From Leptolyngbyaceae cyanobacterium RM1_406_9 (lineage in GTDB: Bacteria; Cyanobacteriota; Cyanobacteriia; Elainellales; Elainellaceae), in contig JAAUQZ010000074.1 in assembly GCA_012033355.1 (NCBI GenBank), positions 1-21,128 on the forward strand: 21,128 nt of DNA, given 5' to 3'. A program made the position numbers and the translations under genes. Positions 1,613 through 21,128 of this stretch are shown here, piece after piece (position 1 is the stretch's first letter; each line of letters begins with the position of its first letter). The notes under the pieces were generated by a model, which saw only the letters and a program-made list of their open reading frames with translations, did no database searches and was not told where the DNA came from.

Positions 1613-2266
1613 TTACAGCACACCTTTGGAGCTGGGGATGGTATGGGCGCGACGCGGATCAACCTCAATCGCCATTCTCATCGCCCGCGCAAACGCCTTG
1701 AACGTTGCCTCAATGATGTGGTGAGAATTGATCCCATCCAGTTGGCGAATGTGTAGCGTCATTTGGGAATGGTTGACAATTGCCACAAAAAACTCGCGCA
1801 CCAGTTGCGTATCGTAAGTGCCAACCCGCTCCGTAGGAATTTGTAAGCCGTAGCTGAGGTGAGGCCGTCCCGAAAAATCTAGCGTCACCTGCACGAGGGC
1901 TTCATCCAGGGGTGCTAGGAAATGCCCGAAACGGACGATGCCTTTGCGATCGCCCAATGCCTTTGCCAACGACTGACCCAGCGTAATCCCCACATCTTCA
2001 TTCGTGTGGTGGTCATCGATTTCCAGATCGCCCGTTGCCTGCACATCCAGGTCAATCAGCCCGTGTGAGGAGATCTGGTGCAGCATATGATCTAAAAACG
2101 GAATTCCCGTTGCTGCCGAGCAAGTTCCCTGTCCGTCAAGATTCAGGCTCACCTGCACGTCTGTCTCACCCGTTTTGCGGCTAACGGAGGCCATTCGAGC
2201 AGGCAATTCTAAATTGAAGGAAGGAAGTTTTTCTGAGGAAGTCGCTGCGAAGTCGCGGGTTTGCAT
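1613..2266 (-). CDS. hisB: Imidazoleglycerol-phosphate dehydratase
   Basis: The 217-aa ORF contains [35 protein letters not shown] and HHIIEA.FKA.ARA, which are canonical HisB motifs. The true start may be the internal Met at 2194 ([12 protein letters not shown]). The stop codon directly abuts the nei start. Confidence 0.93.
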
Positions 2267-2409
2267 GAACCTGAGCCAAATTTTCTAATTGTCTAAGCTC
2301 ATTAATTGTAAAACCCAGCGCTCAGATCTGCGACTTCTCGAAGAAGTTGCAGATCTTGTTTGCTCATGAATAGGCAGAAGGCTTAGTTCCAATGGCACTG
2401 ACGTAAGCG

Positions 2410-2470
2410 GCTTTCTTTGCCCTGGAATCAATTCCAGGTAATCGATTAAGTCCGTTAAAACTGAGAGTTG
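2410..2470 (+). repeat. Partial copy of the roughly 146-bp structured repeat (central palindrome plus part of the next hairpin)
   Basis: CCCTGGAATCAATTCCAGGTAATCGATTAAGTCCGTTAAAACTGA resembles the core of 2482-2627, and lies immediately upstream of the full copy. Confidence 0.6.
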
Positions 2471-2481
2471 GCACTAGTTTA

Positions 2482-2627
2482 GTCTGTTACCCAACGCCCC
2501 GCCCTGGAATCAATTCCGGGCTAACAGCTTAAGTCAGTTGAAACTGACTCAACCATCCACTGAAAAACCGTTCCAACTTGTTTTAACGAGTTTTAGCTTT
2601 GAGCCTGAGATTGATCTCAAGGCTCTA
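2482..2627 (+). repeat. Roughly 146-bp hairpin-rich dispersed repeat, copy A
   Basis: It aligns by eye at roughly 85% identity with the reverse complement of 9223-9369. Shared elements are the palindrome CCTGGAATCAATTCCGGG, the hairpins GTC(A/C)GTT..AAC(T/G)GAC and AACT(T/C)GTT-tt-AACGAGTT, and a nearly identical 3' 60 nt (..TTTTAGCTTTGAGCCTGAGATTGATCTCAAGGC). The first 30 nt or so recur at 546-580. Confidence 0.85.
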
Positions 2628-2918
2628 GAGCGATGCCTCCAGCCGTTGATACAAGCTCTCATTTAAGGTGGATTGCATCTACAGCTCCCCGATCTCCCCA
2701 TTCGTTAAAGCTGATTAAGCAGACTTTGCAGACGTTCTAATTCTGCATCAACTGCTGCATCGAGGAGAAGGAGTGTTTGAGGGTTCAGCACTGGGAAGTT
2801 GCGACTGGGGTACTAGCCAACGACACTCCAAGCCTAAGCGCAACTGACCTGGAATATTTAATGGGAATTACGCAGATTTCTCTGATCTTTAAGAAGTTTT
2901 CGTCAACTTGAAGCCCTA

Positions 2919-3021
2919 AGGATTGTGGATCAAATAATCTGTAAAACCAGAATCTCTGTAGGGACATGGCATTGCCGTGCCCCTACACAGGAGAATTACA
3001 CATTAATAAATCCACAATCCT
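2919..3021. repeat. Nested palindromic element: a 12-bp perfect outer IR enclosing a GTAGGG..CCCTAC hairpin
   Basis: AGGATTGTGGAT (2919-2930) pairs with ATCCACAATCCT (3010-3021). The inner imperfect 14-bp stem is 2957-2970/2974-2987 (TGTAGGGACATGGC att GCCGTGCCCCTACA). Confidence 0.7.
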
Positions 3022-3099
3022 AAGCAGCGTGAAAAATTGGACGGTTCAACAAACCTTACTAGAGGATATTCAAAAAACAGCCCATACCCCAAGAATACG

Positions 3100-3170
3100 T
3101 AGGGGCATAGCATTCGGCAGATAGACGCTGGAACAAACCTAAGGATTCTTGCCCGAATGCTACGCCCTTA
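3100..3170. repeat. Second GTAGGGGCA-type inverted repeat (about 21-bp arms, 28-nt spacer)
   Basis: TAGGGGCATAGCATTCGGCAG (3100-3120) pairs with TTGCCCGAATGCTACGCCCTTA (3149-3170), with 2 mismatches and 1 indel. CCTAAGGATT at 3138-3147 is a direct repeat of 2915-2924. Confidence 0.65.
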
Positions 3171-3205
3171 CAGGAACTCGCTGCTTTTCAACCATTCTCT
3201 TAAAG

Positions 3206-3982
3206 TTACATTCCCATGATGGCGTAGCCCGAATCGACGTAGAGAATCTGTCCCGTGATGCCACTGGAAAGGTCACTTGCCAGGAAAGCAGCCGTATTGC
3301 CGACTTCGGTTTGAGTTACCGTGCGGCGCAGGGGGGCAATTTCCTCAACGTGGTGGATCATGTCTAAGATGCCGCCAACAGCCGAAGAAGCCAGGGTGCG
3401 AATGGGGCCAGCGGAGATCGCATTGACACGGATATTTTGGGGGCCAAGCTCGGCGGCGAGATAGCGGACGTTCATCTCCAGGGCGGCTTTGGCAATTCCC
3501 ATGACGTTGTAGTTGGGGATAACGCGAACGCCGCCTAAATAGGTCAGGGTAATGATGCTACCGCCTTCGGTCATGAGTGGGCTGGCGGCGCGGCTAAGCT
3601 GCACCAGTGAATAAGCGCTGACTTCCAGGGCGAGGTTGAATCCAGCACGAGAGGTTTTACTGAAATCACCTGTCAGGTCATCTTTGTTGGCAAAGGCGAG
3701 GCAGTGAATCAGGATGTCGAGCTTGCCCCACTTCTCCTGAACCGTTGCAAAGGTTGACTCGATCTGCTCATCGTTTTGCACGTCGCAGGGCAGAAACAGA
3801 CTGGGCTGGAGCGGCTCTACCAGTTCTGCCACTTTCTTTTCATACCGTCCTTTTTCGTCGGGCAGAAAAGTTACGCCCAGGTTAGCTCCAGCTTGGTGAA
3901 GCTGTTGGGCGATTCCCCAGGCGATCGAGCGGTTATTGGCGATGCCTGTGACGAGAGCGTTTTTGCCAGTCAAGTTCAGCAT
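3206..3982 (-). CDS. fabI: Enoyl-[acyl-carrier-protein] reductase (NADH), FabI
   Basis: MLNLTGKNALVTGIANNRSIAWGIA is the Rossmann/FabI N-terminus. The downstream motifs LDILIHCLAF, Y...K (AYSLV...MGIAKAALE) and ISAGPIRTLA are also present. The ORF is open to 4015, but the Met at 3982 gives the canonical N-terminus. Confidence 0.93.
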   Translation of the reverse strand: MLNLTGKNALVTGIANNRSIAWGIAQQLHQAGANLGVTFLPDEKGRYEKKVAELVEPLQPSLFLPCDVQNDEQIESTFATVQEKWGKLDILIHCLAFANKDDLTGDFSKTSRAGFNLALEVSAYSLVQLSRAASPLMTEGGSIITLTYLGGVRVIPNYNVMGIAKAALEMNVRYLAAELGPQNIRVNAISAGPIRTLASSAVGGILDMIHHVEEIAPLRRTVTQTEVGNTAAFLASDLSSGITGQILYVDSGYAIMGM

Positions 3983-4232
3983 GGGAATCTGTGGAAAATC
4001 TTTATTTAGGCGCAACTAGGAGAATACTGGAAAACGAGGATCGAAGGATAGAGTATGAATTTTGATATGGCTGTTTTACTTTGGAGCGATCGCCTTGTAA
4101 TCTAGATAACATAAGCCTTTCAAGTTCCTTCATCAAAGCTCAAACCTGGCTTGTTTTTGAGTGAACTGAATGCTGCCAAAGCAAAGTTGGGTGAATTTAC
4201 GGACGAGCTTTCGATACAGCTTGGCAAATTAT

Positions 4233-4246
4233 GTATCGTCGTGTAC
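4233..4246 (+). promoter_or_regulatory. Candidate NtcA-binding box GTA-N8-TAC upstream of ntcA
   Basis: GTATCGTCGTGTAC is read at 4233-4246, 116 nt upstream of the ntcA ATG. Two TAN3T-like -10 candidates follow: TAAGTT (4265-4270) and TAGTGT (4272-4277). Their spacings of 18 and 25 nt bracket the canonical spacing of about 22 nt but do not match it. Confidence 0.55.
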
Positions 4247-4361
4247 AAAAAACTGTCTCACAGTTAAGTTTTAGTGTTCTAAAGTCAGAGATCTCTCACA
4301 GGAAGCAGGGGATCTCTGCATGACCTGATTCAGTCTATACGACAGTGGGTAGGGCGAGGGT

Positions 4362-5036
4362 ATGGTAGTGACGCAAGATAGACCACCGCTAGCGAATGTA
4401 TTTCGGCAGCTCAGTGGCAGCGCTTTTCCGCCAGTGGTGGAGTCGTTTGATCGAAGTAAGACTATTTTCTTTCCGGGTGATCCCGCTGAGCGTGTCTATT
4501 TTCTGCTTAAGGGCGCTGTAAAACTGTCCAGGGTTTATGAAGCTGGAGAGGAAATCACGGTTGCGCTGCTGCGAGAAAATAGCGTGTTTGGCGTGCTGTC
4601 TCTGATCACGGGACACCGCTCTGATCGGTTTTACCATGCCGTCGCTTTTACGCCCGTAGATTTGCTCTCTGTGCCGATTGAGCAAGTCGAGAAGGCGCTC
4701 AAAGATAACCCCGAACTGTCGATGCTGATGCTTCAGGGACTTTCCTCTCGGATTCTGCAAACCGAGATGATGATCGAAACGCTGGCACACCGCGATATGG
4801 GTTCACGCCTGGTCAGTTTCTTGCTGATTCTCTGCCGTGACTTTGGAATGCCCAGCCCCGATGGGATCACGATTGACCTGAAGCTGTCGCATCAGGCGAT
4901 CGCTGAAGCCATTGGCTCAACCCGTGTGACCGTAACTCGTCTGCTGGGCGATCTGCGGCAGGATAAAATGATATCTATTCACAAAAAGAAAATTACCGTT
5001 CACAATCCCGTTGCCCTTAGCCAGCAGTTTACTTAA
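4362..5036 (+). CDS. ntcA: Global nitrogen regulator NtcA (CRP/FNR family)
   Basis: The 224-aa product is near-identical over long stretches to NtcA as I recall it. Matching stretches are [79 protein letters not shown] and [25 protein letters not shown]. Confidence 0.97.
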
Positions 5037-5105
5037 GTCAACGCATCCACCCGTTCACCTTGTTCAGAATGCAGTAGGCTGTATCTGGACTGTTTCTAGC
5101 CAGCG

Positions 5106-6599
5106 ATGACCGCTCAGTTAGTCCTGATTGCAGCAATTTTGGTACTGGGGGGGGTGATTGCCACGGTGGGCGATCGCCTGGGAATGCGAGTGGGCAAAGC
5201 TCGGTTAACGCTGTTTAACCTGCGTCCCCGTCAGACTGCAACTATTGTCACCATTCTCACGGGCAGCGTCATTTCTGCCTCTACGTTTGCGCTCCTGTTT
5301 GCCCTGAGTGAGCAGCTTCGACGCGGTATTTTCGACTACGAAGAAATTCAGGAAAATTTGACGACTGCCCGTCAAGACCTGGAAGAAGTCAGCGAAGAAA
5401 AGCAGCAGATTGAGGCTCAGCGAGATGAAGCCATTGAGCAGCAAAGGGCAGCACGGAACCGACTGCGGCAAATCAACCAAGATCTGGAAGCGGCGATCGC
5501 CCGTCAAGCTAGAACCGCTGCCCGATTAAACCAGTCCCAAAACCAACTGAACCGAACTCAAAACCAACTGGGTCGAATTCGCTCTAGCTTTGAACGAGCC
5601 CGCGCTCAACTGGGTCGGGTGACACAGCAGGCAAACAGCCTTCGATCAGAGATTCGAGAGCTTCAGGTTGGACGGCAACAGTTGATTCGCCAAAGAGAAG
5701 AAGAATTGGCTCTGCGGGATCAGGCGATCGCCGAACGAGAAGCACTGCTGCGGCAACTTGAAGCCCAAAGAGCATTTCTCGCTCAAGAGGTGCAATCTCT
5801 AGAGCGAGAGTTTCAAGGATTACGTCAAGGCAACGTCGCTCTCCTGCGAAATCAGGCTCTTGTCTCTCGTGCCTTTCGCATTGTTGATCCAACCGTTGCG
5901 CCTCAAGTAATCTATCGGCTGCTGCTAGAGGCAAATCGAGTCGCAGTTCAGGAAATCTTACCTGATGCAGACGATTTAGATCAGCAAGTCATCGATATTA
6001 CAAATGCTGAGGTTGAACGGCTGGTTAGCCAAATTCGAGATGGACAAGAGTATGTCGTGCGAATTCTCTCGGCTGGCAATTATGTCGTTGGAGAACCGTG
6101 CGTTGTAGCAGGAGAATCGTGTATTCAGGTATTTGCTGCTGCCACCCCTAATCAGGTTGTGTTTTTAGATGGAGAAACTGTAGCGACCGTTTCTGTTGAT
6201 CCATCCACTGCTACGGATGAAGAACTGCTAGATCGAATCAGGTTGTTGGTTGCAGCCTCTCAGTTTCGGGCGAGACAGGCAGGCATATTGTTAGATATGC
6301 CCCAGGTGGCAGATGGCCGAACTCAAACTTTGATCAGCTTTTTGCGACAGGTTAAGCAATACAATCAGCCGATTGAAATCCAGGCGATCGCCTCAGATGT
6401 TACTTACACCGCAGGGCCAGTTAGGCTAGAGCTAGTTGCAGTTCAAGACGGTCAAATTCTGTTTGGAACAGGACAATCTCCTGCATTATTTGCTCCACAA
6501 CCCAATTCCCCACCTGCCAGTCCAGAGCAGTCCGAATCTGACTCTAATAGTTCAGGACGAAGTGATCCAGAGCGAAACAATCAGGATCAGCCAAACTGA
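5106..6599 (+). CDS. Membrane-anchored coiled-coil protein, DUF3084-like
   Basis: 497 aa. The N-terminal region has two hydrophobic segments (ILVLGGVIATVGDRLG..., TILTGSVISASTFALLF). A long Q/R/E/L-rich heptad-like region of about 180 aa follows. The C-terminal globular part ends in a low-complexity S/P/N tail. The DUF3084 name is from memory of the N-terminal motif. Confidence 0.8.
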   Translation: MTAQLVLIAAILVLGGVIATVGDRLGMRVGKARLTLFNLRPRQTATIVTILTGSVISASTFALLFALSEQLRRGIFDYEEIQENLTTARQDLEEVSEEKQQIEAQRDEAIEQQRAARNRLRQINQDLEAAIARQARTAARLNQSQNQLNRTQNQLGRIRSSFERARAQLGRVTQQANSLRSEIRELQVGRQQLIRQREEELALRDQAIAEREALLRQLEAQRAFLAQEVQSLEREFQGLRQGNVALLRNQALVSRAFRIVDPTVAPQVIYRLLLEANRVAVQEILPDADDLDQQVIDITNAEVERLVSQIRDGQEYVVRILSAGNYVVGEPCVVAGESCIQVFAAATPNQVVFLDGETVATVSVDPSTATDEELLDRIRLLVAASQFRARQAGILLDMPQVADGRTQTLISFLRQVKQYNQPIEIQAIASDVTYTAGPVRLELVAVQDGQILFGTGQSPALFAPQPNSPPASPEQSESDSNSSGRSDPERNNQDQPN

Positions 6600-6633
6600 A
6601 GGAATTTTCAGAAATCTTAATTTTCCAAACTGC

Positions 6634-7068
6634 ATGGCATCCCTATTTCTAGATTCTAACCAGCCAGCTATTTTGGGTTTTGATCCCGGTCGCCAAAAGT
6701 GCGGTCTGGCCGTCATGGGGCTGGATCGCAGCCTCCTATATCGTGAGGTAATCCCAGCGGAGAAGGCGATCGCTACCATCCAAACATTACGCCAGCAGTT
6801 CCCAATTTCGCTGCTGGTAATGGGCGACCAGACCAGTTCCAAAGACTGGAAGCAAAAGCTCGACAGCAACTTATCAGAACCCCTGAGAATCGTCCTGGTA
6901 GACGAACGGTTTAGCACCCTGGAAGCTCGCGATCGCTACTGGCAAATGCACCCGCCCAGAGGTTTATTCCGCCTGCTGCCACAGGGCATTCGCACCCTTC
7001 CCCGCCCCATCGACGACATCGTAGCGATTCTTTTAATTGAACGCTATTTGGGCAGGTTGACGGATTAA
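6634..7068 (+). CDS. YqgF/RuvX-like RNase H-fold nuclease (putative pre-16S rRNA nuclease / Holliday-junction resolvase-like)
   Basis: ILGFDPGRQKCGLAVMG resembles the GLD.G..RIGVA motif, LLVMGDQTS is present, and VDERFSTLEAR resembles the DERLTT..A motif. The start is placed at the Met at 6634. The longer track ORF from 6436 overlaps the preceding gene. Confidence 0.65.
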   Translation: MASLFLDSNQPAILGFDPGRQKCGLAVMGLDRSLLYREVIPAEKAIATIQTLRQQFPISLLVMGDQTSSKDWKQKLDSNLSEPLRIVLVDERFSTLEARDRYWQMHPPRGLFRLLPQGIRTLPRPIDDIVAILLIERYLGRLTD

Positions 7069-7118
7069 AAAAGAGTTGAATTGTTCCATGAGCTTGCACA
7101 TGAAAAATTCGACTTCAA

Positions 7119-7382
7119 TCAAATTTCTGCCCGAATCGTAAACGAATAATCTCCACCTGGCTCAAGCTGGTAATCACATTTTTCCAGAAAGCGACCCAGG
7201 GGTTCTTGAATGAGCGCTCTTCCCAGCGACGGCTCAACAGATAGCTCTCCTCGGTTAAAGCGCCACTGAAACTGCCAGTGATAGTCACTCGCTCTTACCT
7301 CACCTTCGATTCTGCCCTGCTGCCAAGACTGGTGAGTAATGCGGACATAGGCAGTCGTTTCAGGTAGACGCTTAGAACTCAC
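7119..7382 (-). CDS. Small conserved-looking hypothetical protein (87 aa)
   Basis: This is a clean ORF in line with pth and tatA on the minus strand (69-nt gap to pth). The composition is non-repetitive. I recognise no family with confidence. Confidence 0.55.
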   Translation of the reverse strand: MSSKRLPETTAYVRITHQSWQQGRIEGEVRASDYHWQFQWRFNRGELSVEPSLGRALIQEPLGRFLEKCDYQLEPGGDYSFTIRAEI

Positions 7383-7451
7383 AGTAGCTTCTATTTCCTA
7401 TTAATTTTAGGGTCCGTTCTGGTGGGCCCTGCTGGGATTCTAAACTAAGCT

Positions 7452-8120
7452 TTACGCAATGCGATCATCGGGAGTCACAGAGCGACTATTGTAGAGGCTC
7501 ATCGCTTTGGCAACGCCCTGTTTGAGACTTAGCTCGACGGCTGACAGAACCATTTGCAGCACTTCTGCCATGATTTGTGCTTCTGCTTTAGAAAATTGCC
7601 CTAATACGTGAGAAACGGTATCTTTGTCGGAAGCAGCAAGGTTTTTAGGGCTATCGATGCCGATGCGGAGACGCGGAAAATCTTGTGTGCCCAGGTGGGC
7701 GATCGCTGATTTCATGCCCTTTTGCCCACCCGCTGAGCCAGAGAGCCGCAGCCGAATTTTGCCTACTGCCAAATCCATATCATCGTAGATCACCAGCACG
7801 GACTCCGGCGGTAGCTTAAACCAATCCGTTGCGGCCCGAATTGCCTGCCCTGACAGATTCATGTAAGTCAGCGGCTTCAGCAAGCGAATTTTGTCTCCGT
7901 GTGGCCCTCGCCCTTCACCAAAAGTGGACTGAAATTTACGATTTTCGGACATACTAATGCCCCACGATCGCGCTAGCAAGTCGATCGCCTCAAAGCCAAT
8001 GTTGTGTCGAGTTTTGTCGTACTTTGCCCCCGGATTGCCCAACCCCACAATCAATTGCGGAATCACTAACTCAGGAGCCGCCGAAGTGTCTGTCATCTGA
8101 ACTGTTGATCTGTCTGTCAC
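7452..8120 (-). CDS. pth: Peptidyl-tRNA hydrolase
   Basis: LIVGLGNPGAKYDKTRHNIGF, TYMNLSG, and GGQKG.KS (GSAGGQKGMKS) are classic Pth motifs. The start may be the second Met (MTDTSA). Confidence 0.93.
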   Translation of the reverse strand: MTDRSTVQMTDTSAAPELVIPQLIVGLGNPGAKYDKTRHNIGFEAIDLLARSWGISMSENRKFQSTFGEGRGPHGDKIRLLKPLTYMNLSGQAIRAATDWFKLPPESVLVIYDDMDLAVGKIRLRLSGSAGGQKGMKSAIAHLGTQDFPRLRIGIDSPKNLAASDKDTVSHVLGQFSKAEAQIMAEVLQMVLSAVELSLKQGVAKAMSLYNSRSVTPDDRIA

Positions 8121-8167
8121 TGCTGGCGATCGCCCACTGCCGTCTCACCTATTCTTAACCTCGACCC

Positions 8168-8515
8168 CTAACTCTGAACGACTTTCTCCTCTGCAATTTC
8201 CTCAGCTTCGACTGCTTCAGCTAGTTCAGTCGCCTCAGTCGTTTCAGCTTCAGGCTCAGTCGAGGCAGTAGGAGCCAGTGCCTTGCGTGAAGACGGGGTT
8301 TCTAGCTTAGCTTCCATCGGTTGACTGACGGTTTGCTCTAGGCGCTCTGCTTCTTTCTTAAACTCGTTTTCAAATTCCTTAGACGCTTCCTGGAAGCCGC
8401 GAATTGCCTTGCCCAGACTACGACCAATTTCTGGTAGCTTCTTGGGGCCAAAAATTAGCAGGGCAACGACCATAATCAGCGCCATTTCGGGTAAACCAAT
8501 TCCAAAAACATTCAT
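8168..8515 (-). CDS. tatA: Twin-arginine translocase subunit TatA/E
   Basis: MNVFGIGLPEMALIMVVALLIFGPKKLPEIGRSLGKAIRGFQ shows the TatA TM helix, the FGPKKLP hinge and the amphipathic helix. An acidic C-terminal tail follows. Confidence 0.9.
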   Translation of the reverse strand: MNVFGIGLPEMALIMVVALLIFGPKKLPEIGRSLGKAIRGFQEASKEFENEFKKEAERLEQTVSQPMEAKLETPSSRKALAPTASTEPEAETTEATELAEAVEAEEIAEEKVVQS

Positions 8516-8589
8516 CGTGCCTTCTCCTAAAACTGTGGGTGGGCGATCGCCCCTTTAACGATAGACTCAATTTTTTAGTATAAGGCGAA

Positions 8590-8614
8590 CAAAAAACCCC
8601 GGACGAGCCGGGGC
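8590..8614 (-). terminator. Rho-independent terminator downstream of psbH
   Basis: The minus strand reads CCCCGG-ctcgt-CCGGGG followed by TTTTTT. It lies 64 nt after the psbH stop and before tatA. Confidence 0.75.
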
Positions 8615-8677
8615 AAAGATTCATCCAATATCCACAACCAAAGGAAGACTTGCAGGCAGTAAGCAATCTGCCAAACA

Positions 8678-8881
8678 TTACTTGCCCAATGTACTCCAGT
8701 CTACATCCAGACCTTCAAGCAGCAAGGAAGAATTATAAATTTGCAGAATGATCAGCAAGAACACGAAAAATAAACCCATGAAGACCGCCATCAGCGGTGT
8801 CGTTCCCCAACCGGGAGCAACTTTACCGTATTCAGAGTTTAGAGGTTTGAGGATATTTCCCAACCGAGTCTGTTGTGCCAT
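8678..8881 (-). CDS. psbH: Photosystem II reaction-centre protein H
   Basis: 67 aa. The sequence is [52 protein letters not shown], the canonical PsbH sequence with a single TM helix. Confidence 0.95.
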
Positions 8882-8957
8882 GAGTGACCTGCGATAAATC
8901 TCAATATTTTAACGATCCGTAATATTATAAAAGAATACTACTCATAATTGATCGCTT

Positions 8958-9089
8958 ATGGAACCCGCAACAGTTTTTAGCATTTCTATCGGAGTTTTCT
9001 TGTTAGCCGTGACAGGCTTTTCTATTTATACCTCGTTTGGGCCTCCTTCTAGAGAACTCAACGATCCATTTGAAGACCACGAAGATTAG
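8958..9089 (+). CDS. psbN: Photosystem II assembly protein PsbN (43 aa; below the ORF-track length cutoff)
   Basis: My hand translation gives [43 protein letters not shown], from ATG at 8958 to TAG at 9087-9089. This matches the conserved PsbN pattern (METAT...YT.FGPPS.EL.DPFE.HED). The gene is divergent from psbH, which is the conserved arrangement. Confidence 0.9.
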
Positions 9090-9222
9090 AAAGTACTTAA
9101 GCACAACGAGCATTTGTAATCAAACGCAAACTCTGCCACCGCTCTAAACCTGCTGGGCATATCTCTAGCCCTACCCAAGCCAGGGTACCTGAGATCTTGC
9201 ACTAGCGGCAGGGGGTGTTGCA

Positions 9223-9369
9223 CTAGCGCCTTGAGATCAATCTCAGGCTCAAAGCTAAAACTCGTTAAAACGAGTTGGAATGGTTTTACAGTGGGCATTT
9301 GAGTCCGTTGAAACGGACTTGGGCTATTAGCCCGGAATTGATTCCAGGATGGGTCATCGGGTAACAAAC
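9223..9369 (-). repeat. Roughly 146-bp hairpin-rich dispersed repeat, copy B (inverted relative to copy A)
   Basis: The reverse complement aligns along its whole length with 2482-2627 (see copy A). The 93-aa track ORF at 9086..9367 lies inside it and is not conserved in copy A. Confidence 0.85.
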
Positions 9370-9562
9370 CAGCTTAGTGCGAGATTTGAGTTACAGCAGT
9401 TTTCACTTGCACAAAGCACAAATCTCTCTAGGGGCGGACAGCCGTTTGCCCCTAGAGTTATTCATCCGTAAGACGCTGCAAATCTCCACTCAAATTCAAC
9501 AATTTGTGGCTTGAGTTGCTTTATTCTATGTCTAGACAACTCGATTTGAGGTTCAACCGTAG

Positions 9563-9795
9563 CTCATTCTATTTTTGGAATAGATGGCTCTATCTCTGAC
9601 CCGCTTCAGTTAACCCTGAGAATAGAACTATCCATCTCTGACCCCACTTCATTTGGGGTCAGACCTACTTCATTCTATTCTTGGAATAAGTGGTTCTATC
9701 CCTGAACTCCACTTCAACTGGGGGCAAACCTACTCCATTCTATTTCTAGAATAGATGGCTTTGTACTAGACATACTTCCATTGGGGTAAGAGGGC
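9563..9795 (+). repeat. Degenerate tandem repeat (unit about 66 bp, 3-4 copies) with internal hairpins
   Basis: Units start with CATTCTATT(T/C)(T/C)(T/A)GGAATA(G/A)(A/G)TGG at 9565, 9671 and 9737. The first interval is 106 bp and contains an internal partial duplication. Each unit has a TCTATT..AATAGA hairpin, and CTGACCCC-acttcattt-GGGGTCAG is present at 9638-9662. Confidence 0.75.
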
Positions 9796-9797
9796 GA

Positions 9798-9939
9798 TGG
9801 GTGCATCCAAGTTTTGCAAGTTTGCCCTCATCCCCCAGCCCCTTCTCTCAAAAAGGGAGAAGGGGAGCCGGATTGGAAGTCCCTCTCCCGCTCTGGGAGA
9901 GGAATTTAGGGTGAGGGCTGCAAAAGTGGGATGCACCCA
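9798..9939. repeat. Roughly 140-bp palindromic dispersed element (long terminal IR plus two internal hairpins)
   Basis: The left arm is TGGGTGCATCCAAGTTTTGCAAGTTTGCCCTCA and the right arm is GGGTGAGGGCTGCAAAAGTGGGATGCACCCA. Internal stems are CCCCTTCTC/GAGAAGGGG (9839-9865) and CCTCTCCC/GGGAGAGG (9882-9902). The 21 nt at 9919-9939 recur exactly, inverted, at 21108-21128. Confidence 0.8.
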
Positions 9940-10103
9940 GGGGCGATCGCCTCTGAGGAAGTGACGGCAAACCGTTGGAACCACTAAATTGACCAGCAGC
10001 CTGATGCCACTTCTGCGTGAAGCTATATGTTCTAGGGCAAGACACGCTCCAAAACATATAGCTTTGAAGAGAATTGGGATAAAGACTTGGAGGTAAACCT
10101 GTC

Positions 10104-10685
10104 ATGATTGCTCAAACTGAGACAAAACACTACACCATTGATGAATACCTGGAACTCGAAATCGCGTCAGAAACGCGCAGTGAATACTGTGATGGAGAAA
10201 TCATTCCAATGACTGGTGGAACACCCAACCACAATGATATCGCTGGGAACCTATACATCCTTCTTAAATCCGCGCTCAAGGGGAAAAATTACCGGACTTT
10301 TTATGCCGATCAACGGCTCTGGATTCCAGATGTCAGCCTCTATACCTATCCCGATGTGATGGTTCTACCTAAACCGCTAGAACTTCAAACTGGGCGCAAA
10401 GATACTGTTGTGAACCCTTGTTTTATAGCTGAAGTGTTGTCTAAGTCCACTCAAAACTACGATCGCGGTGAGAAATTTGTTGCCTATCGGACAATTCCCA
10501 CCTTCCAAGAATATTTGCTGATTGACCAATACTGCATACACGTTGAGCATTATGTTAAAACAGCCGCTCATCAATGGCTATTTTCGGAATACGATGACCC
10601 AACTGTTACTCTTTCTTTAAGCACCTTTGAGTTTCAAATTCAGATTGCAGAACTTTACGACAATATTGACTTTTCAACTGTTTGA
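10104..10685 (+). CDS. Uma2 family (DUF820) PD-(D/E)xK-like endonuclease
   Basis: 193 aa. YTIDEYLELE...SEYCDGEI..MTGGTPNHNDI..NLY..L, the later ...YPDVMVL and ...NPCFIAEVLS.ST...D...K...Y follow the Uma2 pattern that is abundant in cyanobacteria. Confidence 0.85.
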   Translation: MIAQTETKHYTIDEYLELEIASETRSEYCDGEIIPMTGGTPNHNDIAGNLYILLKSALKGKNYRTFYADQRLWIPDVSLYTYPDVMVLPKPLELQTGRKDTVVNPCFIAEVLSKSTQNYDRGEKFVAYRTIPTFQEYLLIDQYCIHVEHYVKTAAHQWLFSEYDDPTVTLSLSTFEFQIQIAELYDNIDFSTV

Positions 10686-10799
10686 GTGGGATGGCTGAAA
10701 CAGGAGTAGAAAGGGCGATCGCACAGGATAAGAACAAGGCTACTATTTGGATACCCCGCTTAGTGAAGTGAACAGGAGATCGACGTAAGGCAGGTCAAG

Positions 10800-11108
10800 A
10801 TGTCCGTTGAGGAAGCACTGGCTATTTTAGATATAGCCTTACAGCAAGAACGCCTAAACGACGTTCAAGAAATTGTCTTTCGCTGCTGCTGGGAAGGACA
10901 GACCTATGCTGAGATTGCCGACTCAGCGGGATATGATCCTGGCTACATCAAAGATGTCGGCTCCAAACTGTGGCAGCTTTTGTCAGAGTCTCTCGGCGAA
11001 AAAGTCAGCAAAAGCAACCTCCAGGCTGTTTTTAGAAGAAATCTATACCGCCTTTCAACCCCGCAAGAACTCCCCTCTCCCCTCCCCACCCTCCTCTCTT
11101 TCCCTTAG
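10800..11108 (+). CDS. Stand-alone HTH domain (sigma-70 region 4/LuxR-like) normally found as the N-terminus of cyanobacterial STAND-WD40 proteins; probably the split-off 5' part of the next gene
   Basis: The sequence is [78 protein letters not shown], followed by a Pro-rich linker and a TAG at 11106. The downstream gene's frame is already open from 11036, which gives a 73-nt two-frame overlap. Confidence 0.7.
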
Positions 11109-11170
11109 CCCCCAGCCCCCAGCCCCTAGCGCCGCCCCGCCCCCTCACTGCGACTGGGAGAGCAATTGAC

Positions 11171-14100
11171 GTGTCTACCTTCTACGGTCGGGCAGAAGAG
11201 TTAGCCACGCTGAAGCAGTGGATTTTAGGAACCCAGACCCGTCAGCCCTGTCGCCTGGTTGCAATGCTGGGAATGGGCGGCATTGGCAAAACCTCTTTGT
11301 CGGTAAAACTGGCGCAAGAGATTGTAGAAGGGGTCGGAGGAACGGAGTCTCCCCATCGTTCTTTTGAGTTTGTGATTTGGCGATCGCTCCGCAATGCTCC
11401 TCTAGTCGAAGACATTCTCGCTGACCTCATCCGAGTCCTTTCTAACGAGCAGGAAACGGAAGCGGATTTATCCAAAGATCTCAGCAGCAGGATTACTCGG
11501 CTGATTCACTACCTCCGGACTCACCGTTGCCTACTGGTGTTAGACAACGCAGAAACAATTTTGCGCGGCGGTGACTATGCCGGATATTATCGCGAAGGCT
11601 ATGAGGGCTATGGAGATTTGCTGCGGCGGGTAGGAGAAGTAACTCACCAAAGCTGTCTGGTGATCACCAGTCGAGAAAAACCGAGGGAGTTTGTCTCTCT
11701 AGAAGGCGATACATTGCCTGTGCGATCGCTCAGTCTGATTGGCTTACGGGTCTCTGACGGACAGGAAATTCTCAGGGCAAAAGGTGAGTTTATTGGGTCT
11801 GAAGCCGAACTGGAGGCACTCACCGATCGCTATGCTGGAAACCCACTGGCGCTAAAGATTGTTGCCACCACGATTCAAGACTTGTTTGATGGCAGCATTG
11901 CCGAATTTTTAGCGCAGGGCACGGCCGTCTTTGATGACATTCGCACTCTGCTGGTCCAGCAGTTTAGCCGCCTGTCAGACCTGGAGCGGGAAATTATGCA
12001 CTGGCTGGCAATCGATCGGGAACCCGCTGCGTTTAGTGATTTGCAGGAAGATCTGCTGGTGCCTGTAACCAAAACACAGCTCATTGAGGCGATCGGCTCT
12101 TTGCGGCGGCGATCGCTGATTGAGAAAGCAACGGTTACAGGGGGCGATCGCCAGTCCAACAGCTACACGCAGCAGCCCGTTGTGATGGAGTATGTGACTG
12201 AACGGTTGGTCGAGCAAACTTGCCAGGAAATTCTCACTGGAAAGCTCTCACTGTTTATCACCCATGCCCTGCTCAAAGCCTCAACCAAAGACTACATTCG
12301 GGAAAGCCAAATTCGGATTATTTTAGAGCCGACTATTGCTCAACTCCTGTCCACACTGCGGACAAAGCCAGATGTTGAGCAAAAGTTAAACCAGGTTTTG
12401 GAAAAGTTACAGGAATTGGCTGACCAGAGTGGCTATGGTGGCGGCAACTTGATTAACCTGTATCGGCAACTTAAAACCGACCTGACAGACTATGATTTTG
12501 CTCAAATCAAAGTGCAGCACGCCTACCTGCCCGATGTAAACCTGCATCGAGTTGATTTTACCGACGCGGATTTGGCGAAATCTGTGTTTGCTCAAACGCT
12601 TGGCAGCATCTTGTCAGTCGCCTTTAGCCCCGATGGAACGCTGCTGGCAACCAGCGACGAAGACGGCGAAATTCGCGTTTGGCAAGTGACAGACGGCAGG
12701 CAGCTTTATACCTGTCGGGAACATACAGAGTGGGTTTGGTCAATTACCTTTAGCCCAGACGGGGAAACAATCGCCAGCAGCAGCAAAGACCAAACCGTGC
12801 GACTGTGGGACTCTGCAACGGGACAGTGTTTTCAGGACTTGCAAGGGCATACGGGCTGGGTTTGGTCTTCTGCTTTTAGCCCCGACGGCCAAACCCTGAT
12901 CAGCGGCAGCGAAGACCAGACGGTGAAACTATGGAATATTCACTCCGGAGACTGTCTCAATACCTTTGAAGGGCACCTGGGCGGAGTCTGGTCAGTGGCA
13001 TTTAGCCCCGATGGTCAACGGTTTGCCAGCGGGGGTGTCGATCAAACCGTGCGGCTGTGGGAGGTAAAAACCGGGAAATGTCTCCTGCTGGAAGGGCATA
13101 CAAATCGGATTCGTTCGATTGTTTTTAGTCCTGATGGTCAGCTTTTGGTCACGGCAGGCGATGACCAATCGATGCGATTCTGGCAGGTTAGCACAGGGAA
13201 ATGTTTGCACGTTGCACCTCACGATAGCCGCATCTGGTCGGTGGCATTTAGTCCGGATGGGGAATGGGTGGCGATCGCCAGTGACGACCAGACCATTAAA
13301 CTTTGGGAAGTCCGCACCCGTCAGTTTTTTAGAACCTTTCAAGGGCACAGCAGCCGAGTTTGGTCCGTGGCATTTAGTCCTGACAGTCAAACACTCGCCA
13401 GCGGCAGCGACGACCAGACGATTCGCCTCTGGGAAGTCCACAGTGGGCAGTGCCTCCGCAGCTTCCAGGGACACAATAACTGGATCTGGGCAGTTGCCTT
13501 TAGCCCTGACGGAAACTCCCTTGTCAGCGGTGGTGAAGATCGAGCAGTGCGGCTATGGGATCTTCAAACTGAGAAATGCTTCAAGGAATTGCGAGGCCAC
13601 ACCGGACGCATCTGGTCGGCCGCCTTTAGCCCCAATGGTCAGATTCTTGCTAGCGGCAGTGATGACCAAACCATCAAACTGTGGCAGGTGAAAACTGGAC
13701 GCTGCCGCGCGACCTTGCGCGGACACACACGCCAGGTGCGGCTAATTGCGTTTAGCCCAGAGGGTCAGCTCCTCGCCAGTGCCAGCGGCGATCGCACTGT
13801 CAAACTTTGGGAAGTCAGCACCGGGGAATGCCTCAAAACCCTTCGGGGACACGCAAGCTGGCTCTTTTCCGTTGCCTTCAGCCCCAATGGAAAACGGTTG
13901 GTAACGGGCAGCGATGACCAAACTGTGCGGCTGTGGGATGTGAATACGGGGGAATGTCTAACCGTGTTAGAAGGACACAGCAAAATTGTGCTATCGGTTG
14001 CCTTCAGTCCTGATGGCAAAACGGTTGCCAGCAGCAGCGATGACCAAACCATTCGACTTTGGGATGCTGACACCGGGGAATGCATTCACACCATTTCCCA

Positions 14101-14455
14101 GGAAGCAGGCTGGGTGCAGGTTGTCGCTTTTAGCCCCAGCATAGAATCGCCAATTCTCGCTAGCAGCGGCAATGACCAGATGATTAAACTGTGGGAGATG
14201 GGTCAGACGGAGTGCCTGAAGCAGTTGCAAGGGCATGGAAAAGCTGTGAATGCGATCGCCTTTAGCCCCAATGGTCAATTTCTCGTTTCCGGCAGCGAAG
14301 ACGAAACCATCAAACTCTGGCAGGTCAACACTGGAGAATGTCTCAAAACCCTCAGAGCCAAACGCCCTTACGAAGGCATGAATATTACGGGTACAACTGG
14401 ATTGACTGCCGCTCAAAGGGCGACTTTGAGAGCATTGGGGGCAGTAGAGTTTTGA
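11171..14455 (+). CDS. STAND (NB-ARC/AP-ATPase-like) P-loop NTPase with 14 C-terminal WD40 repeats
   Basis: FYGRAEEL...[11 protein letters not shown] is the Walker A (nt 11270-11293), and CLLVLDNAE is the Walker B. GNPLALK and a winged-helix-like region follow. Fourteen units of about 42 aa then run across 12602-14359 ([41 protein letters not shown]). The tail is [16 protein letters not shown]...L.ALGA. The annotated GTG start at 11171 is probably an artefact of the split from 10800-11108. Confidence 0.9.
12602..14359 (+). repeat. Intragenic tandem array: 14 WD40-encoding units of about 126 bp
   Basis: I counted the repeats from the translation. Unit lengths are 42,42,42,41,41,42x7,44,40 aa. 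This predicts two 7-bladed propellers. Confidence 0.85.
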
Positions 14456-14499
14456 TTGCTGAATTAGTCAAAATACTGACAGCAAACTTTCCTTACACT

Positions 14500-15309
14500 A
14501 TGGGTGATTCCCTCTCTATGACTCCATACTCCCTTCTCAAGCAAGCTCAGCGACAGCGAGTGAGTGATGGGCAACACGTTTCCATTGTGGATGGATGTGA
14601 TTCCGCTGATCGCCTCCTGGTGATGGTGCTGCCTCAACTGGGTGACTTTGATAGTCTTGAGTATATCTGGTGGCTACAACGGTATGCGGAACAGTTGCAG
14701 TCTCTCAAGCTAACCATTCGCGCCGTAGGAATTGGCGATCGCACGTCAGGAGAACAGTTTTGTCGTTACACCAACTTCTCCCCTGAGAGACTATTTGTTG
14801 ATCCGACGGCAGAACTGCATCAACAGTTGGGTCTGTATTCGGGGTTATCCCTCAAGCTACCTGCTCTTTCCCCCGCTCAAACTGCCTGGTTAAATTTGAT
14901 GTTAATGTGTGCTGGGGTTGGCAGTCCCGGTACGCTGGCAGAAGTGTTTCGAGGGTATCGGGGCGATCGCAACGCACCTCAACTCATTGCCGATGATGAA
15001 ATAGTGAAAGCGTCTCCCCTGCCTGCTTTCAAAGGCTCATTCTTTAAGCTAGCTGGAGGCACAGGATTTCAGCGCCCCTTTGAGTTGGCAACCCTGCGAC
15101 TACGAAACATGACAGAAGTTTTGAGTCACTGGAAAATCTATGTTCCCAACGCCGCATACCTCACCCAACGAGGGGGAACATTCCTATTCAATAGCAATGG
15201 CGATTTGCTCTATGAGCATCGAGACCAGGGAATCTTGGGCTTTGCTGCCGATATGAGCAACCCGCTATCGTTTTTGTTGGAGAATCTATCTCTTCTACAA
15301 CCTCAGTAA
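14500..15309 (+). CDS. AhpC/TSA_2-like (PF13911-type) thioredoxin-fold protein lacking the canonical Cys
   Basis: LLVMVLPQLGDFDSLEY...IRAVGIGD....F....F....LFVDP...L...LG, and the C-terminal QRGGTFLF...GDLLYEHRDQGILGFA, match my memory of the peroxiredoxin-like family. The start is set at ATG 14500 (alternative 14518). The track ORF start at 14338 overlaps the WD40 gene. Confidence 0.65.
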   Translation: MGDSLSMTPYSLLKQAQRQRVSDGQHVSIVDGCDSADRLLVMVLPQLGDFDSLEYIWWLQRYAEQLQSLKLTIRAVGIGDRTSGEQFCRYTNFSPERLFVDPTAELHQQLGLYSGLSLKLPALSPAQTAWLNLMLMCAGVGSPGTLAEVFRGYRGDRNAPQLIADDEIVKASPLPAFKGSFFKLAGGTGFQRPFELATLRLRNMTEVLSHWKIYVPNAAYLTQRGGTFLFNSNGDLLYEHRDQGILGFAADMSNPLSFLLENLSLLQPQ

Positions 15310-15332: not shown

Positions 15333-15383
15333 AGGTTAAGACAAGGGAGGCGGAGCCTAGCCCCGCCTCCCTTGTCTTAACCT
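15333..15383. terminator. 21-bp perfect GC-rich stem-loop between convergent genes (putative bidirectional terminator)
   Basis: AGGTTAAGACAAGGGAGGCGG (15333-15353), loop agcctagcc, CCGCCTCCCTTGTCTTAACCT (15363-15383). It lies 24 nt after the stop at 15309 and 22 nt after the minus-strand stop at 15405. There is no flanking T-run on either strand. Confidence 0.6.
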
Positions 15384-15404: not shown

Positions 15405-16547
15405 TTAGTTTGGTTGCGAATCTGGATAATCGAGATATTTCAAATCACCTATGGATATAGAGCGCAACCCTGATTTCTCTTCTAGAAAGATTGCTCCATT
15501 TTTGATCAACTCAATCTTCAGCTTCTCAGGTACTCCAAGATTTTGACCAAACTTAGCAAGCTCCACGTTTGCCTCCTCTAAGGCTGCGTTTCTCAGGTTA
15601 GCGCCCTGCAAATCAGCGCCCTGTAAGTTAGCACCTTGCAGGTTAGCGCCTTGCAAATCAGCACCTCGCATATTGGTTTCCCGCAGTTGAGCATTGTTTA
15701 GATCAACACAACTCAAGATACTGCTGCTTAAATCAGCAAAGCTCAAATCACTTTCACCTAAGTTAGCAAGACTCAAGTTAGCGCCTCGAAGATCTGCGTA
15801 TCTCAAATCAGCCCCGCTGAGTTTAGTGAAACTAAGCGAAGCACACGTTAATATGGCTCTTTGCAGATTGCAACGCCGCAAATCGGCTCCTCGTAAAACA
15901 GCGCTGCTCAAATCAACTCCCTCCAGGTTTTTGTCTTGCAGCTTGCGAGTAGCCAGGTCATTTCTAGTGTCAATTCCAAACAAATTCAAATCGAACTTGC
16001 CCTTCATCTGCAAACTGTCGTCTAACTCCTTAAAATCCTGCAAATTGCTGGTTAACAGGATAGGTCGCTCTGGATTCTGGAAAAGCTCCTCCAAATTTTG
16101 GCGCTTGGTAAAATCATTCGCTGTTAAAACCGACAGATTAGCGCCAGCAAAGTTGTTGGGATAAAGGGTGATGATTGCACTAAGGTTCTTGGCGCTTGCA
16201 CAGGCTACCTCAACCGCACAATCGGTGTTTTGAATGCAAGACTGACGGGCTTCTTCTATGGATTTTGAGGTGATGTAAATGATGCGATCGCGCAAAAACA
16301 CCCTGATCATAGACACTGCCTCCTGACCTGCTTGCTCATCGAGTTTGCTGAGATAAAACCCAACTTTCTGCAAGCAATAGTCTGTAATATAGGCTCGAAT
16401 CTTTTGAAGTTGAACTAGCTGCAAAAGCTCCTCAGTATCTTCTATACATTTACTGGAATTGGTGAAGTACTGCAAAATCACATCAGTACTAATCAAAACT
16501 CCTATTTTTAGCGAATCTTCACAGGAACCAGGTAAAGACTGATTCAT
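15405..16547 (-). CDS. PIN-like N-terminal domain fused to a pentapeptide-repeat beta-helix domain
   Basis: 380 aa. Residues 15-140 or so show a PIN_3-like pattern: IGVLISTDVIL (Asp22), AYITDYCLQKV (Asp56), NTDCAVEVACASAKNLSAIIT (Asp109), with the usual fourth acidic position read as LYPNNF. Residues 198-332 or so hold about 25 A(D/N)Lxx pentapeptides (ADLRGANLSLANLGESDLSFADL...GADLQGANLQGANLQGADLQGANL). The last 50 aa or so are unassigned. Confidence 0.8.
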   Translation of the reverse strand: MNQSLPGSCEDSLKIGVLISTDVILQYFTNSSKCIEDTEELLQLVQLQKIRAYITDYCLQKVGFYLSKLDEQAGQEAVSMIRVFLRDRIIYITSKSIEEARQSCIQNTDCAVEVACASAKNLSAIITLYPNNFAGANLSVLTANDFTKRQNLEELFQNPERPILLTSNLQDFKELDDSLQMKGKFDLNLFGIDTRNDLATRKLQDKNLEGVDLSSAVLRGADLRRCNLQRAILTCASLSFTKLSGADLRYADLRGANLSLANLGESDLSFADLSSSILSCVDLNNAQLRETNMRGADLQGANLQGANLQGADLQGANLRNAALEEANVELAKFGQNLGVPEKLKIELIKNGAIFLEEKSGLRSISIGDLKYLDYPDSQPN

Positions 16548-16621
16548 ACTGCACTCCTACAAAAATCTAAGAACAGCGCTGCTGAGTTTTCAACAACGCC
16601 AAAACTTAATTTCTTTCTTTG

Positions 16622-16918
16622 TTACTTAGATCCCCATCGCTGACGCATCTCTCGCAAATCTTCTAAGGAGAAACTTCCAGCTTTTGTATCGTCTGCTTCG
16701 GGGTCTGGAACGTATTCAATTAACTGCTGAAGGTCGCAGCCTAACACCTCACACAACTTTAGGAACTTCTCGATCTGATCCACTCCCGACTTTCCACTTT
16801 CCCAATTCTGAATGGTGTTTGTGGTGACACCCACAAGAACAGCCAATTGAGCCTGAGTTAAGCCCGTCTTATCTCTAAGAGTTGCGATCCTCGAAACGGC
16901 CTTTTTGCGTTCAGACAT
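16622..16918 (-). CDS. XRE-family (HTH_3) transcriptional regulator, putative antitoxin or repressor of the downstream PIN-like gene
   Basis: 98 aa. LRDKTGLTQAQLAVLVGVTTNTIQNWESGK is a textbook Cro/C1-type HTH. The gene lies 74 nt upstream of, and co-oriented with, 15405-16547. Confidence 0.85.
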   Translation of the reverse strand: MSERKKAVSRIATLRDKTGLTQAQLAVLVGVTTNTIQNWESGKSGVDQIEKFLKLCEVLGCDLQQLIEYVPDPEADDTKAGSFSLEDLREMRQRWGSK

Positions 16919-20773: not shown

Positions 20774-20858
20774 ATAGCGCTCCGCGCTTGGATAACTAAG
20801 GGTTGTTTTGTGAGAGCCGCGCGGAGCGCGGCTCTCACAACCCATTTAGGATGGCTAT
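20774..20858. repeat. MITE-like hairpin element, copy 2 (same family as 243-344)
   Basis: ATAGCGCTCCGCGCTTGGATAACTAAGGGTTGTTTTGTGAGAGCCGCG-cggag-CGCGGCTCTCACAA...GGCTAT. It has the same flank orientation as copy 1, but the loop is inverted (CGGAG vs CTCCG) and the right stem arm is shorter. It is flanked by TA on both sides. Confidence 0.8.
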
Positions 20859-20876: not shown

Positions 20877-21128
20877 ATGAAATCTGTTCTCAACAAAGGG
20901 CGGCTAACAACCTGGAAAGACGATAGAGGTTTTGGCTTCATTCAACCCGCCGATGGCAGTCAAGCAATTTTTCTGCACATCTCTGAGTTAAAAGACTCAA
21001 CTCGCCGTCCGCAAGTAGGCGATACGATTTACTACTATGCTGTAACTGAAAATGGTAAGCTTCGCGCTCACAAAGCTTTTATTTTAGGAGCAAGACGTAA
21101 GCCAACTTGGGTGCATCCCACTTTTGCA
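20877..21128 (+). CDS. Cold-shock-domain (S1-like OB) protein, 5' part; runs off the window
   Basis: My hand translation from ATG 20877 gives MKSVLNKGRLTTWKDDRGFGFIQPADGSQAIFLHISELKDSTRRPQVGDTIYYYAVTENGKLRAHKAFILGARRKPTWVHPTFA..., with no stop before the window end. It contains the RGFGFI RNP1-like motif and the FLHIS motif of CSD proteins. Confidence 0.75.
   Translation, partial: MKSVLNKGRLTTWKDDRGFGFIQPADGSQAIFLHISELKDSTRRPQVGDTIYYYAVTENGKLRAHKAFILGARRKPTWVHPTFA
21108..21128. repeat. Start of a second copy of the 9798-9939 palindromic element (truncated by the window edge)
   Basis: TGGGTGCATCCCACTTTTGCA is the exact reverse complement of 9919-9939. Confidence 0.7.

Follow-up and report, generated by a model that had tools for sequence, protein, structure and literature searches.

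This study concerns a window of 21,128 nucleotides from Leptolyngbyaceae cyanobacterium RM1_406_9 (assembly GCA_012033355.1, contig JAAUQZ010000074.1, forward strand), and within it the block at positions 10104–15309, where three genes on the plus strand encode a Uma2 protein, a STAND protein with a helix-turn-helix (HTH) domain and WD40 repeats, and a thioredoxin-fold protein of the AhpC-TSA_2 family. An earlier note on this DNA had read the block as a candidate NLR-like conflict island. Our comparison with other genomes points elsewhere, and the block is probably best explained as three independently evolving neighbors that stand together by chance adjacency and do not make up a functional unit. 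The central gene is a lineage-specific, ordinary member of a very large cyanobacterial HTH_VMAP-M9–NB-ARC–WD40 family. The Uma2 cassette is a strain-variable insertion/deletion polymorphism among close relatives, and the third gene belongs to the cyanobacterial core.

Linkage of the Three Genes

The public sequences closest to the window match it at 89–100% nucleotide identity and comprise the Leptolyngbyaceae metagenome-assembled genomes (MAGs) GCA_012032565.1 and GCA_012031415.1 (the latter being SM1_4_3), a metagenome contig from the Joint Genome Institute (L089), and stromatolite metagenome contigs. Throughout, L followed by a number denotes a locus or genome sequence that was compared and X followed by a number a metagenome run; run X1 is 100% identical to the window, and runs X3 and X4 are ∼93–95% identical over the block. 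Beyond these relatives, two sets of loci were assembled. The first is centered on the AhpC-TSA_2 gene in the genomes of 79 other species, with up to 10 kb of flank per side and 1.2 Mb in total, and the second on 83 homologues of the STAND gene (79 metagenome loci and 4 individual ones, 0.875 Mb in total).

Neither set recovers the arrangement seen in the window. The AhpC-TSA_2 gene lies next to a Uma2 gene or an HTH-NB-ARC gene in 0 of the 79 genomes, the nearest approach being one unrelated HTH-NB-ARC-WD40 gene ∼7 kb away in an Anabaena genome, and it is found at 0 of the 83 STAND loci. When all open reading frames (ORFs) neighboring the 83 STAND loci were clustered, no recurrent partner emerged, the biggest non-self cluster being OmpR-type response regulators at 9 of the 83. 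An iterative Uma2 profile detected 9 Uma2-like ORFs in the 0.875 Mb around STAND genes (∼10 per Mb) and 14 in the 1.215 Mb of the AhpC-TSA_2-centered control (∼11.5 per Mb), so that Uma2-like ORFs are not enriched near STAND loci relative to the control. Linkage of all three genes was thus not found beyond the close relatives or above background. The earlier note had named a lack of linkage in other genomes as an outcome that would refute its reading; that is the outcome of this comparison, and the proposed three-gene island is not supported.

The Uma2 gene (10104–10685, plus strand) encodes a 193-residue putative endonuclease of the PD-(D/E)xK fold that matches PF05685 (E 3e-35) and the PADLOC candidate family PDC-S03 (E 3e-24). 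Its residues E27, PD83–84, E110, S113, and K124 are conserved in an alignment of Uma2-like ORFs, so that catalytic-type residues are present and the earlier assignment of a nuclease-fold gene is borne out at the level of a putative nuclease. The gene sits in a cassette (9941–10722, plus strand) that is flanked by direct copies of the HIP1 decamer GGGCGATCGC at 9941–9950 and 10713–10722 and is present as a single copy, its depth in run X1 being equal to that of the flanks. In runs X3 and X4, ∼9792–10711 has no counterpart, which takes in all of Uma2, and the contigs join ∼9734–9791 straight to 10712. These runs hold one HIP1 decamer copy and no cassette, and they retain the STAND gene, the AhpC-TSA_2 gene, and the genes downstream. 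The pattern suggests that the cassette was gained or lost by recombination between HIP1 sites, and it offers a clean case of such a gain or loss between two of them.

The AhpC-TSA_2 gene (14500–15309, plus strand) starts 44 nt past the STAND stop codon and encodes a PRXL2-like protein (PF13911, E 1e-24). Orthologues in Leptolyngbyales, Oscillatoriales, Nostocales, and other orders share 75–85% identity with its product, which marks the gene as core cyanobacterial, and its function is probably unrelated to those of the Uma2 and STAND genes. In 121 orthologues the motif PQLGDFDSLEY does not vary, and its DFDS, judged from the motif context and not from a structure, appears to occupy the position of the CxxC of PRXL2/SelL-type relatives. 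Neither a peroxidatic Cys nor a CxxC is present at this presumed active-site position in any of these 121 proteins. Because this position invariantly reads DFDS, the protein is predicted not to be the usual kind of thiol peroxidase. It had been described as Cys-less, which is right as far as the CxxC cysteines go and wrong for the protein as a whole, as C88 and C137 are invariant in the same orthologues. An insertion of ∼70 residues splits the Pfam domain, the SelL-related NCBIfam model (NF040769) matches weakly (E 4e-8), and a PDB search with the protein sequence returned no relative. A core PRXL2-like protein with an invariant DFDS instead of CxxC and two invariant cysteines elsewhere is of modest value in its own right.

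These distributions also bear on the view that the block is accessory. It holds for Uma2, which is variable among close relatives and missing in X3 and X4, and the STAND gene, whose best homologues outside the species cluster reach only 55–58% identity, is probably accessory as well; it does not hold for the AhpC-TSA_2 gene, which is core, and both of the latter genes are kept in the runs that lack Uma2.

Several observations weigh against chance adjacency. All close relatives retain the STAND gene followed, after a 44-nt gap, by the AhpC-TSA_2 gene, and the two may be co-transcribed in this lineage; the locus occurs in none of the RNA-seq runs searched. A CHAT protease gene immediately precedes one STAND homologue, and a Uma2 gene lies 650 nt downstream of another, distant one, so some members of the STAND family may work with their neighbors. 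The earlier note had raised the possibility that Uma2, STAND, and AhpC-TSA_2 form one conflict or defense island, in which the HTH acts with Uma2 as a trans-acting nuclease effector. That proposal can appeal to the shared orientation and short gaps of the three genes, to a gene order retained in L002, L082, L083, L089 and runs X1, X2, and X7, to the PDC-S03 match of Uma2, and to the distant homologue just mentioned; given that X3 and X4 lack Uma2 and have an intact STAND gene, that the density of Uma2-like genes near STAND loci does not exceed the control, that the third gene is core, and that this third gene adjoins neither of the others in the 79 genomes and occurs at none of the 83 STAND loci, we regard it as highly improbable. 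The evidence removes a supposed new NLR-like defense island with a trans-acting nuclease and spares follow-up work on what is a chance adjacency.

The Central STAND Gene and Its Frame Break

The central gene has the parts that had been claimed for it. An HTH_VMAP-M9-type domain (10800–11108, plus strand) forms a 102-codon ORF with a TAG stop and corresponds to the N-terminus of the STAND protein in homologues. It is followed by an NB-ARC NTPase module with a helical/winged-helix region (11171–12601, plus strand; PF00931, E 8.8e-11, 42 bits against a cutoff of 23.5, with AAA_16 and NACHT also matching) and by exactly 14 WD40 repeats, which would fold as two seven-bladed propellers, with a conserved C-terminal tail (12602–14455, plus strand; profile matches). 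Walker A (GMGGIGKTS, at ∼11270–11296) and Walker B (LLVLDN) are both invariant in the family alignment, so the gene shows both the NTPase and the C-terminal repeat sensor that are looked for in STAND/NB-ARC proteins. The best PDB sequence match of the NB-ARC region is the plant NLR ZAR1 (RPP13-like 4, E 6e-4). The ORF at 11171–14455 has no stop within 1094 codons, and its ratio of nonsynonymous to synonymous substitution rates (dN/dS) is 0.07–0.12 against L089 and L002, comparable to that of neighboring genes, with 0.10 for the NB-ARC module against relatives; it is under purifying selection.

For the HTH domain, PF26355 (HTH_VMAP-M9) appears in the precomputed annotation of the orthologous product in two relatives (L082 and L083), and a local Pfam and NCBIfam scan of the window domain gave no matches even at E 10. 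An AlphaFold model built with 39 sequences has five helices and a pLDDT of 82.6, and its best Foldseek matches are nearly all LuxR/GerE DNA-binding domains and sigma-70 region 4 (probability up to 0.99). Their E-values of 0.26–1 are weak, which counts against the assignment and is to be expected of a domain of ∼70 residues. Close NB-ARC relatives, at 54–57% identity, have other HTH types at this place in the protein, of which GerE scores above the Pfam cutoff and Cro/C1-type below it, and this interchangeability favors DNA binding as the output over a role as homotypic adaptor.

The fused N-terminal query recovered 3409 homologues, almost all cyanobacterial and the best 58% identical; beyond the species cluster, the best STAND homologues are only 55–58% identical. 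A word-indexed search with the 102-residue HTH by itself gave only 2 proteins, and an exhaustive search was needed, which returned 1952 representative clusters. Many of these HTH_VMAP-M9-like representatives are merely 90–200 residues long, either free-standing or fragments, and three of the proteins (P0243, P0244, and P0261) consist of 2 to 6 tandem domains of this type. L170 (49–1496) holds a free-standing 102-residue HTH_VMAP-M9 gene and, 45 nt beyond it, a gene for an AAA_35 ATPase; here the domain adjoins a different ATPase family as a separate gene. At L088 (3642–4973), which holds the closest homologue outside the species cluster (P0001, from a Crinalium MAG, 58% identical), the gene for a CHAT (caspase-like) protease ends 27 nt upstream of the STAND gene.

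The HTH and NB-ARC/WD40 ORFs occupy different frames in the window, and the HTH ORF stops at 11108, so that the single HTH-STAND-WD40 protein described earlier is not encoded as such in this sequence. The two domains are fused in frame at 52 of 53 homologous loci, where the N-terminal effector or adaptor stands on the same polypeptide. What uncouples the HTH from the NTPase-sensor part is a set of three single-nucleotide indels, located within or immediately behind a Pro-rich linker (11070–11170, plus strand). The linker is built from 7-nt tandem repeats (CTCCCCT, AGCCCCC), as identified by TRF. Alignment with L082 shows one surplus C in the run at 11084–11087, and alignment with L089 and the X2, X3, and X4 contigs shows two missing bases, a G after 11155 and an A after 11160. 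These two turn GACTGGGGAGAAGCA (DWGEA) into GACTGGGAGAGCA; in homologues, the NTPase module opens with the conserved DWGEA(I/V)DV..FYGR. The DWGEA junction is intact in X2, X3, X4, and L089, and L082 does not have the surplus C.

We consider an assembly or sequencing artifact at a coverage trough to be the better explanation of these frameshifts, with a very recent real disruption a serious, less favored possibility. All short-read assemblies break or lose depth over 11030–11360; L082 and L083 end in this interval, L002 begins later, and the exact words of the window at 11060–11200 were found in none of the indexed runs. Run X1, 100% identical to the window, likewise has a gap here, at 11031–11264. 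Were the frameshifts real, the gene would be either a recently inactivated pseudogene or a split into two proteins, a free HTH and an NB-ARC-WD40 protein started at GTG 11171, and this we hold to be possible. The three indels do stand in the given sequence, GGGAGA is found ∼10 nt upstream of that GTG, and L170 illustrates a free-standing HTH_VMAP-M9 gene upstream of an ATPase gene. Moreover, in an independent genome (L169, GCA_000733415.1), a member of the same family is split in the same relative frame within a 12.6-copy 8-nt repeat. Against such a split, two of the three indels hit conserved DWGEA codons outside the repeats, the ORF is otherwise uninterrupted and evolves under purifying selection, and the indels fall exactly where all short-read assemblies fail and are reproduced in no independent data set.

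The intact protein, in turn, is most likely a ligand-gated STAND switch with a DNA-binding output, a mechanism that we draw from its architecture and from the STAND biology of AfsR, MalT, GutR, and Apaf-1. A ligand on the double WD40 propeller would relieve autoinhibition, ADP-to-ATP exchange in the NB-ARC module would then drive oligomerization, and the clustered N-terminal HTH domains would bind DNA and alter transcription, as in AfsR, MalT, and GutR. Regulators of the AfsR/MalT/GutR type have been named as non-immune STANDs (PMC13581612).

An alternative that we consider unlikely is that the STAND gene by itself is an antiviral NLR-like sensor (Avs/bNACHT-like or Apaf-1-like), in which the WD40 repeats sense a phage protein and the HTH is an effector or a homotypic adaptor for effectors whose genes lie elsewhere. 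The NB-ARC and WD40 architecture fits this idea, and cyanobacterial Apaf-1-like STANDs with WD40 sensors are among the sensor types surveyed in PMC13581612. Its N-terminal domain falls in the same Pfam family as VMAP-M9, the variable middle region M9 of VMAP proteins in vWA-MoxR conflict systems (PMC7159879). The family is also large and rich in paralogues, as the homologue and cluster counts above indicate, and its closest homologue has the CHAT protease gene immediately upstream. Against an antiviral role, none of the defense STAND models of PADLOC-DB 2.0 (Avs, bNACHT, and others) matched at the family level; the only PADLOC hits were HEAT-ARM_XIII, via the WD40 repeats, and IetA at the P-loop level (E 0.003–0.008). 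The gene has no enzymatic effector domain, vWA and MoxR genes are not in the window, and no defense genes recur in the 83 neighborhoods. Finally, the purifying selection on the WD40 repeats (dN/dS as given above) gives no hint of diversifying sensor evolution between these strains.

The linker itself raises one further idea. Of 53 homologous linkers, 13 contain short tandem repeats, as does that of the window, and in most cases the period is 7 or 8. The linkers of L086, L088, L096, L098, L103, L109, L117, L127, and L159 contain coding heptamer or octamer repeats, all in frame, for example ACCCAAC in 8.6 copies and AACCCTC in 5.3. At L169 (8249–8366 of KL662191.1), a 55% identical HTH/NACHT-WD40 pair is frameshifted within 12.6 copies of CACCCCCT, and the frame offset of this split equals that of the window. 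Such repeats might be read as a contingency tract, prone to slippage, through which DNA-binding output and sensor could be reversibly disconnected, with the window and L169 caught in the OFF state. As a test of phase variation, we note that only 1 of the 53 other loci is out of frame, and the contingency reading is weakened because each indel of the window involves one base and two of the three fall outside the repeats, where they destroy conserved codons, unlike the slippage of repeat units; we find it very doubtful. Programmed ribosomal frameshifting was rejected on two grounds, namely that relatives have the junction in frame and that conserved codons are interrupted by two of the indels.

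Repeats, Hairpins, and the Rest of the Window

The repeats upstream of the block and the hairpin downstream of it had been taken as its boundaries. Both exist, and neither is a special border. Upstream, in the spacer between psbN and Uma2, a 217-nt dispersed repeat (9176–9392) has an inverted, 78% complementary copy at 2459–2675 in the hisB–fabI spacer, and a repeat search found three to four degenerate units of ∼65 nt, each capable of forming a hairpin and belonging to no Rfam family, at 9535–9773. An element of 142 nt with 21-nt terminal inverted repeats (9798–9939) resembles a miniature inverted-repeat transposable element (MITE) and has GGGCGAT on both sides; it was apparently inserted into a HIP1 site and is multicopy as judged by depth. 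Its terminal repeat recurs at 21108–21128, and it is missing in run X7, where 9688 is joined to 9943. In four metagenomes, contig depth over the repeats at 9176–9939 is 20–30 times that of the flanks. The repeats upstream of the block belong to dispersed elements of a MITE-like kind. A CRISPR array at 9535–9773 was considered and rejected, as the units are degenerate, the would-be spacers also repeat, and these elements occur dispersed in high copy.

Downstream, a perfect 21-bp stem with a 9-nt loop (15333–15383; ΔG −51.6 kcal/mol, z −8) lies between convergent genes. In L089 the substitutions in the stem are paired and a deletion is matched, so that the stem is maintained, and this covariation argues for a structural role in transcript termination or stabilization, not for an island boundary. 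There is no T-run on either strand of the element, and a terminator scan did not return the full hairpin; it is probably a bidirectional terminator or an RNA-stabilizing hairpin that lacks a U-tract. An Rfam scan of the repeats and the hairpin gave no match. A second family of perfect hairpins, of 22 bp (beginning GGTTGTTTTGTGAGAGCCGCGC), is found at 270–316 and 20795–20840, just past gene ends, and hairpins with long perfect stems recur between genes in this genome. The notion of repeats and hairpin as island borders was rejected, as elements of the same kinds stand at 270–316, 2459–2675, 20795–20840, and 21108–21128.

The remainder of the window is chromosomal in character, with mutM, hisB, fabI, ntcA (TIGR03697, E 2e-117), a DUF3084 gene, ruvX, a DUF3146 gene, pth, tatA, psbH, and psbN (8958–9089, identified by eye), together with a methyltransferase gene and a transketolase-like gene. 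A tRNA scan found none. The Rfam Plastid-psbN 5′ untranslated region (UTR) RNA (RF04353) matches at 8779–8840 on the plus strand with 51.1 bits against a gathering cutoff of 50. The matched stretch precedes psbN by ∼120 nt and lies antisense to the beginning of psbH; this is a plastid-defined element in a cyanobacterium. On the minus strand at 15405–16918, outside the claimed island, an XRE-type HTH gene (16622–16918) is followed by a gene for a PIN-like and pentapeptide-repeat protein (15405–16547), on which PIN_3 scores below the Pfam cutoff (24.5 against 27 bits). The two resemble a toxin–antitoxin pair, and in L089 the XRE protein is 100% and the PIN/pentapeptide protein 91% identical. Along 798–11158, identity to L082 climbs in steps of 89, 90, 94.7, and 97.8%, which suggests inter-strain recombination or a mosaic MAG consensus.

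Comparison with Known Systems

The three genes of the block resemble separate known systems to different degrees. The AhpC-TSA_2 protein is akin to PRXL2/AhpC-TSA_2 proteins (PF13911) and, more weakly, to SelL-related redox proteins (NF040769), on the strength of the matches given above. It departs from them in the DFDS at the redox CxxC/UxxU position, in the ∼70-residue insertion, and in having no PDB relative by sequence. The Uma2 protein matches the Uma2/DUF820 family (PF05685) of the PD-(D/E)xK superfamily (PMC3424549) over its full length and shares its conserved acidic and lysine residues. In cyanobacteria this family consists of scattered genes, ∼10 per Mb in the loci examined, and the window gene is typical of it; no trait distinguishes the protein from other members, and what is notable is its single-copy, HIP1-flanked indel.

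With the VMAP proteins of the vWA-MoxR ternary systems, the central gene shares an N-terminal domain in the M9 Pfam family. No vWA, MoxR, or VMAP-C domain is found among the Pfam domains of the window ORFs, and here HTH_VMAP-M9 heads a STAND NTPase. The AfsR/MalT/GutR STAND regulators offer a closer parallel in layout, as they too combine an HTH-type domain (in the window gene, a putative DNA-binding domain), a P-loop NTPase of the NB-ARC class, and a C-terminal repeat sensor. AfsR has an N-terminal DNA-binding domain and an LLVLDNA-type Walker B, with which the N-terminal HTH and the Walker B of the window gene compare. In contrast to these regulators, the HTH of the window is HTH_VMAP-M9 (LuxR/sigma-70 region 4-like), not SARP, and the sensor is a 14-blade pair of WD40 propellers, not TPR or SUPR; the likeness is one of architecture, and the fusion is broken in the window.

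The remaining comparison is with Apaf-1-like STANDs of the NB-ARC-WD40 type from filamentous cyanobacteria (Kaur et al. 2020, PMC7159879; PMC13581612), which likewise place two WD40 propellers after an NB-ARC module and likewise form a large, paralogue-rich family in multicellular cyanobacteria. Apaf-1-like conflict STANDs carry caspase-like, TIR, nuclease, or death-like N-terminal effectors, whereas the window gene carries only an HTH and finds no defense match in PADLOC. The window gene offers an example, and the family a hint, that the sole output of Apaf-1-like STAND sensors in cyanobacteria can be an HTH domain of interchangeable type, which points to transcriptional, not enzymatic, signaling.

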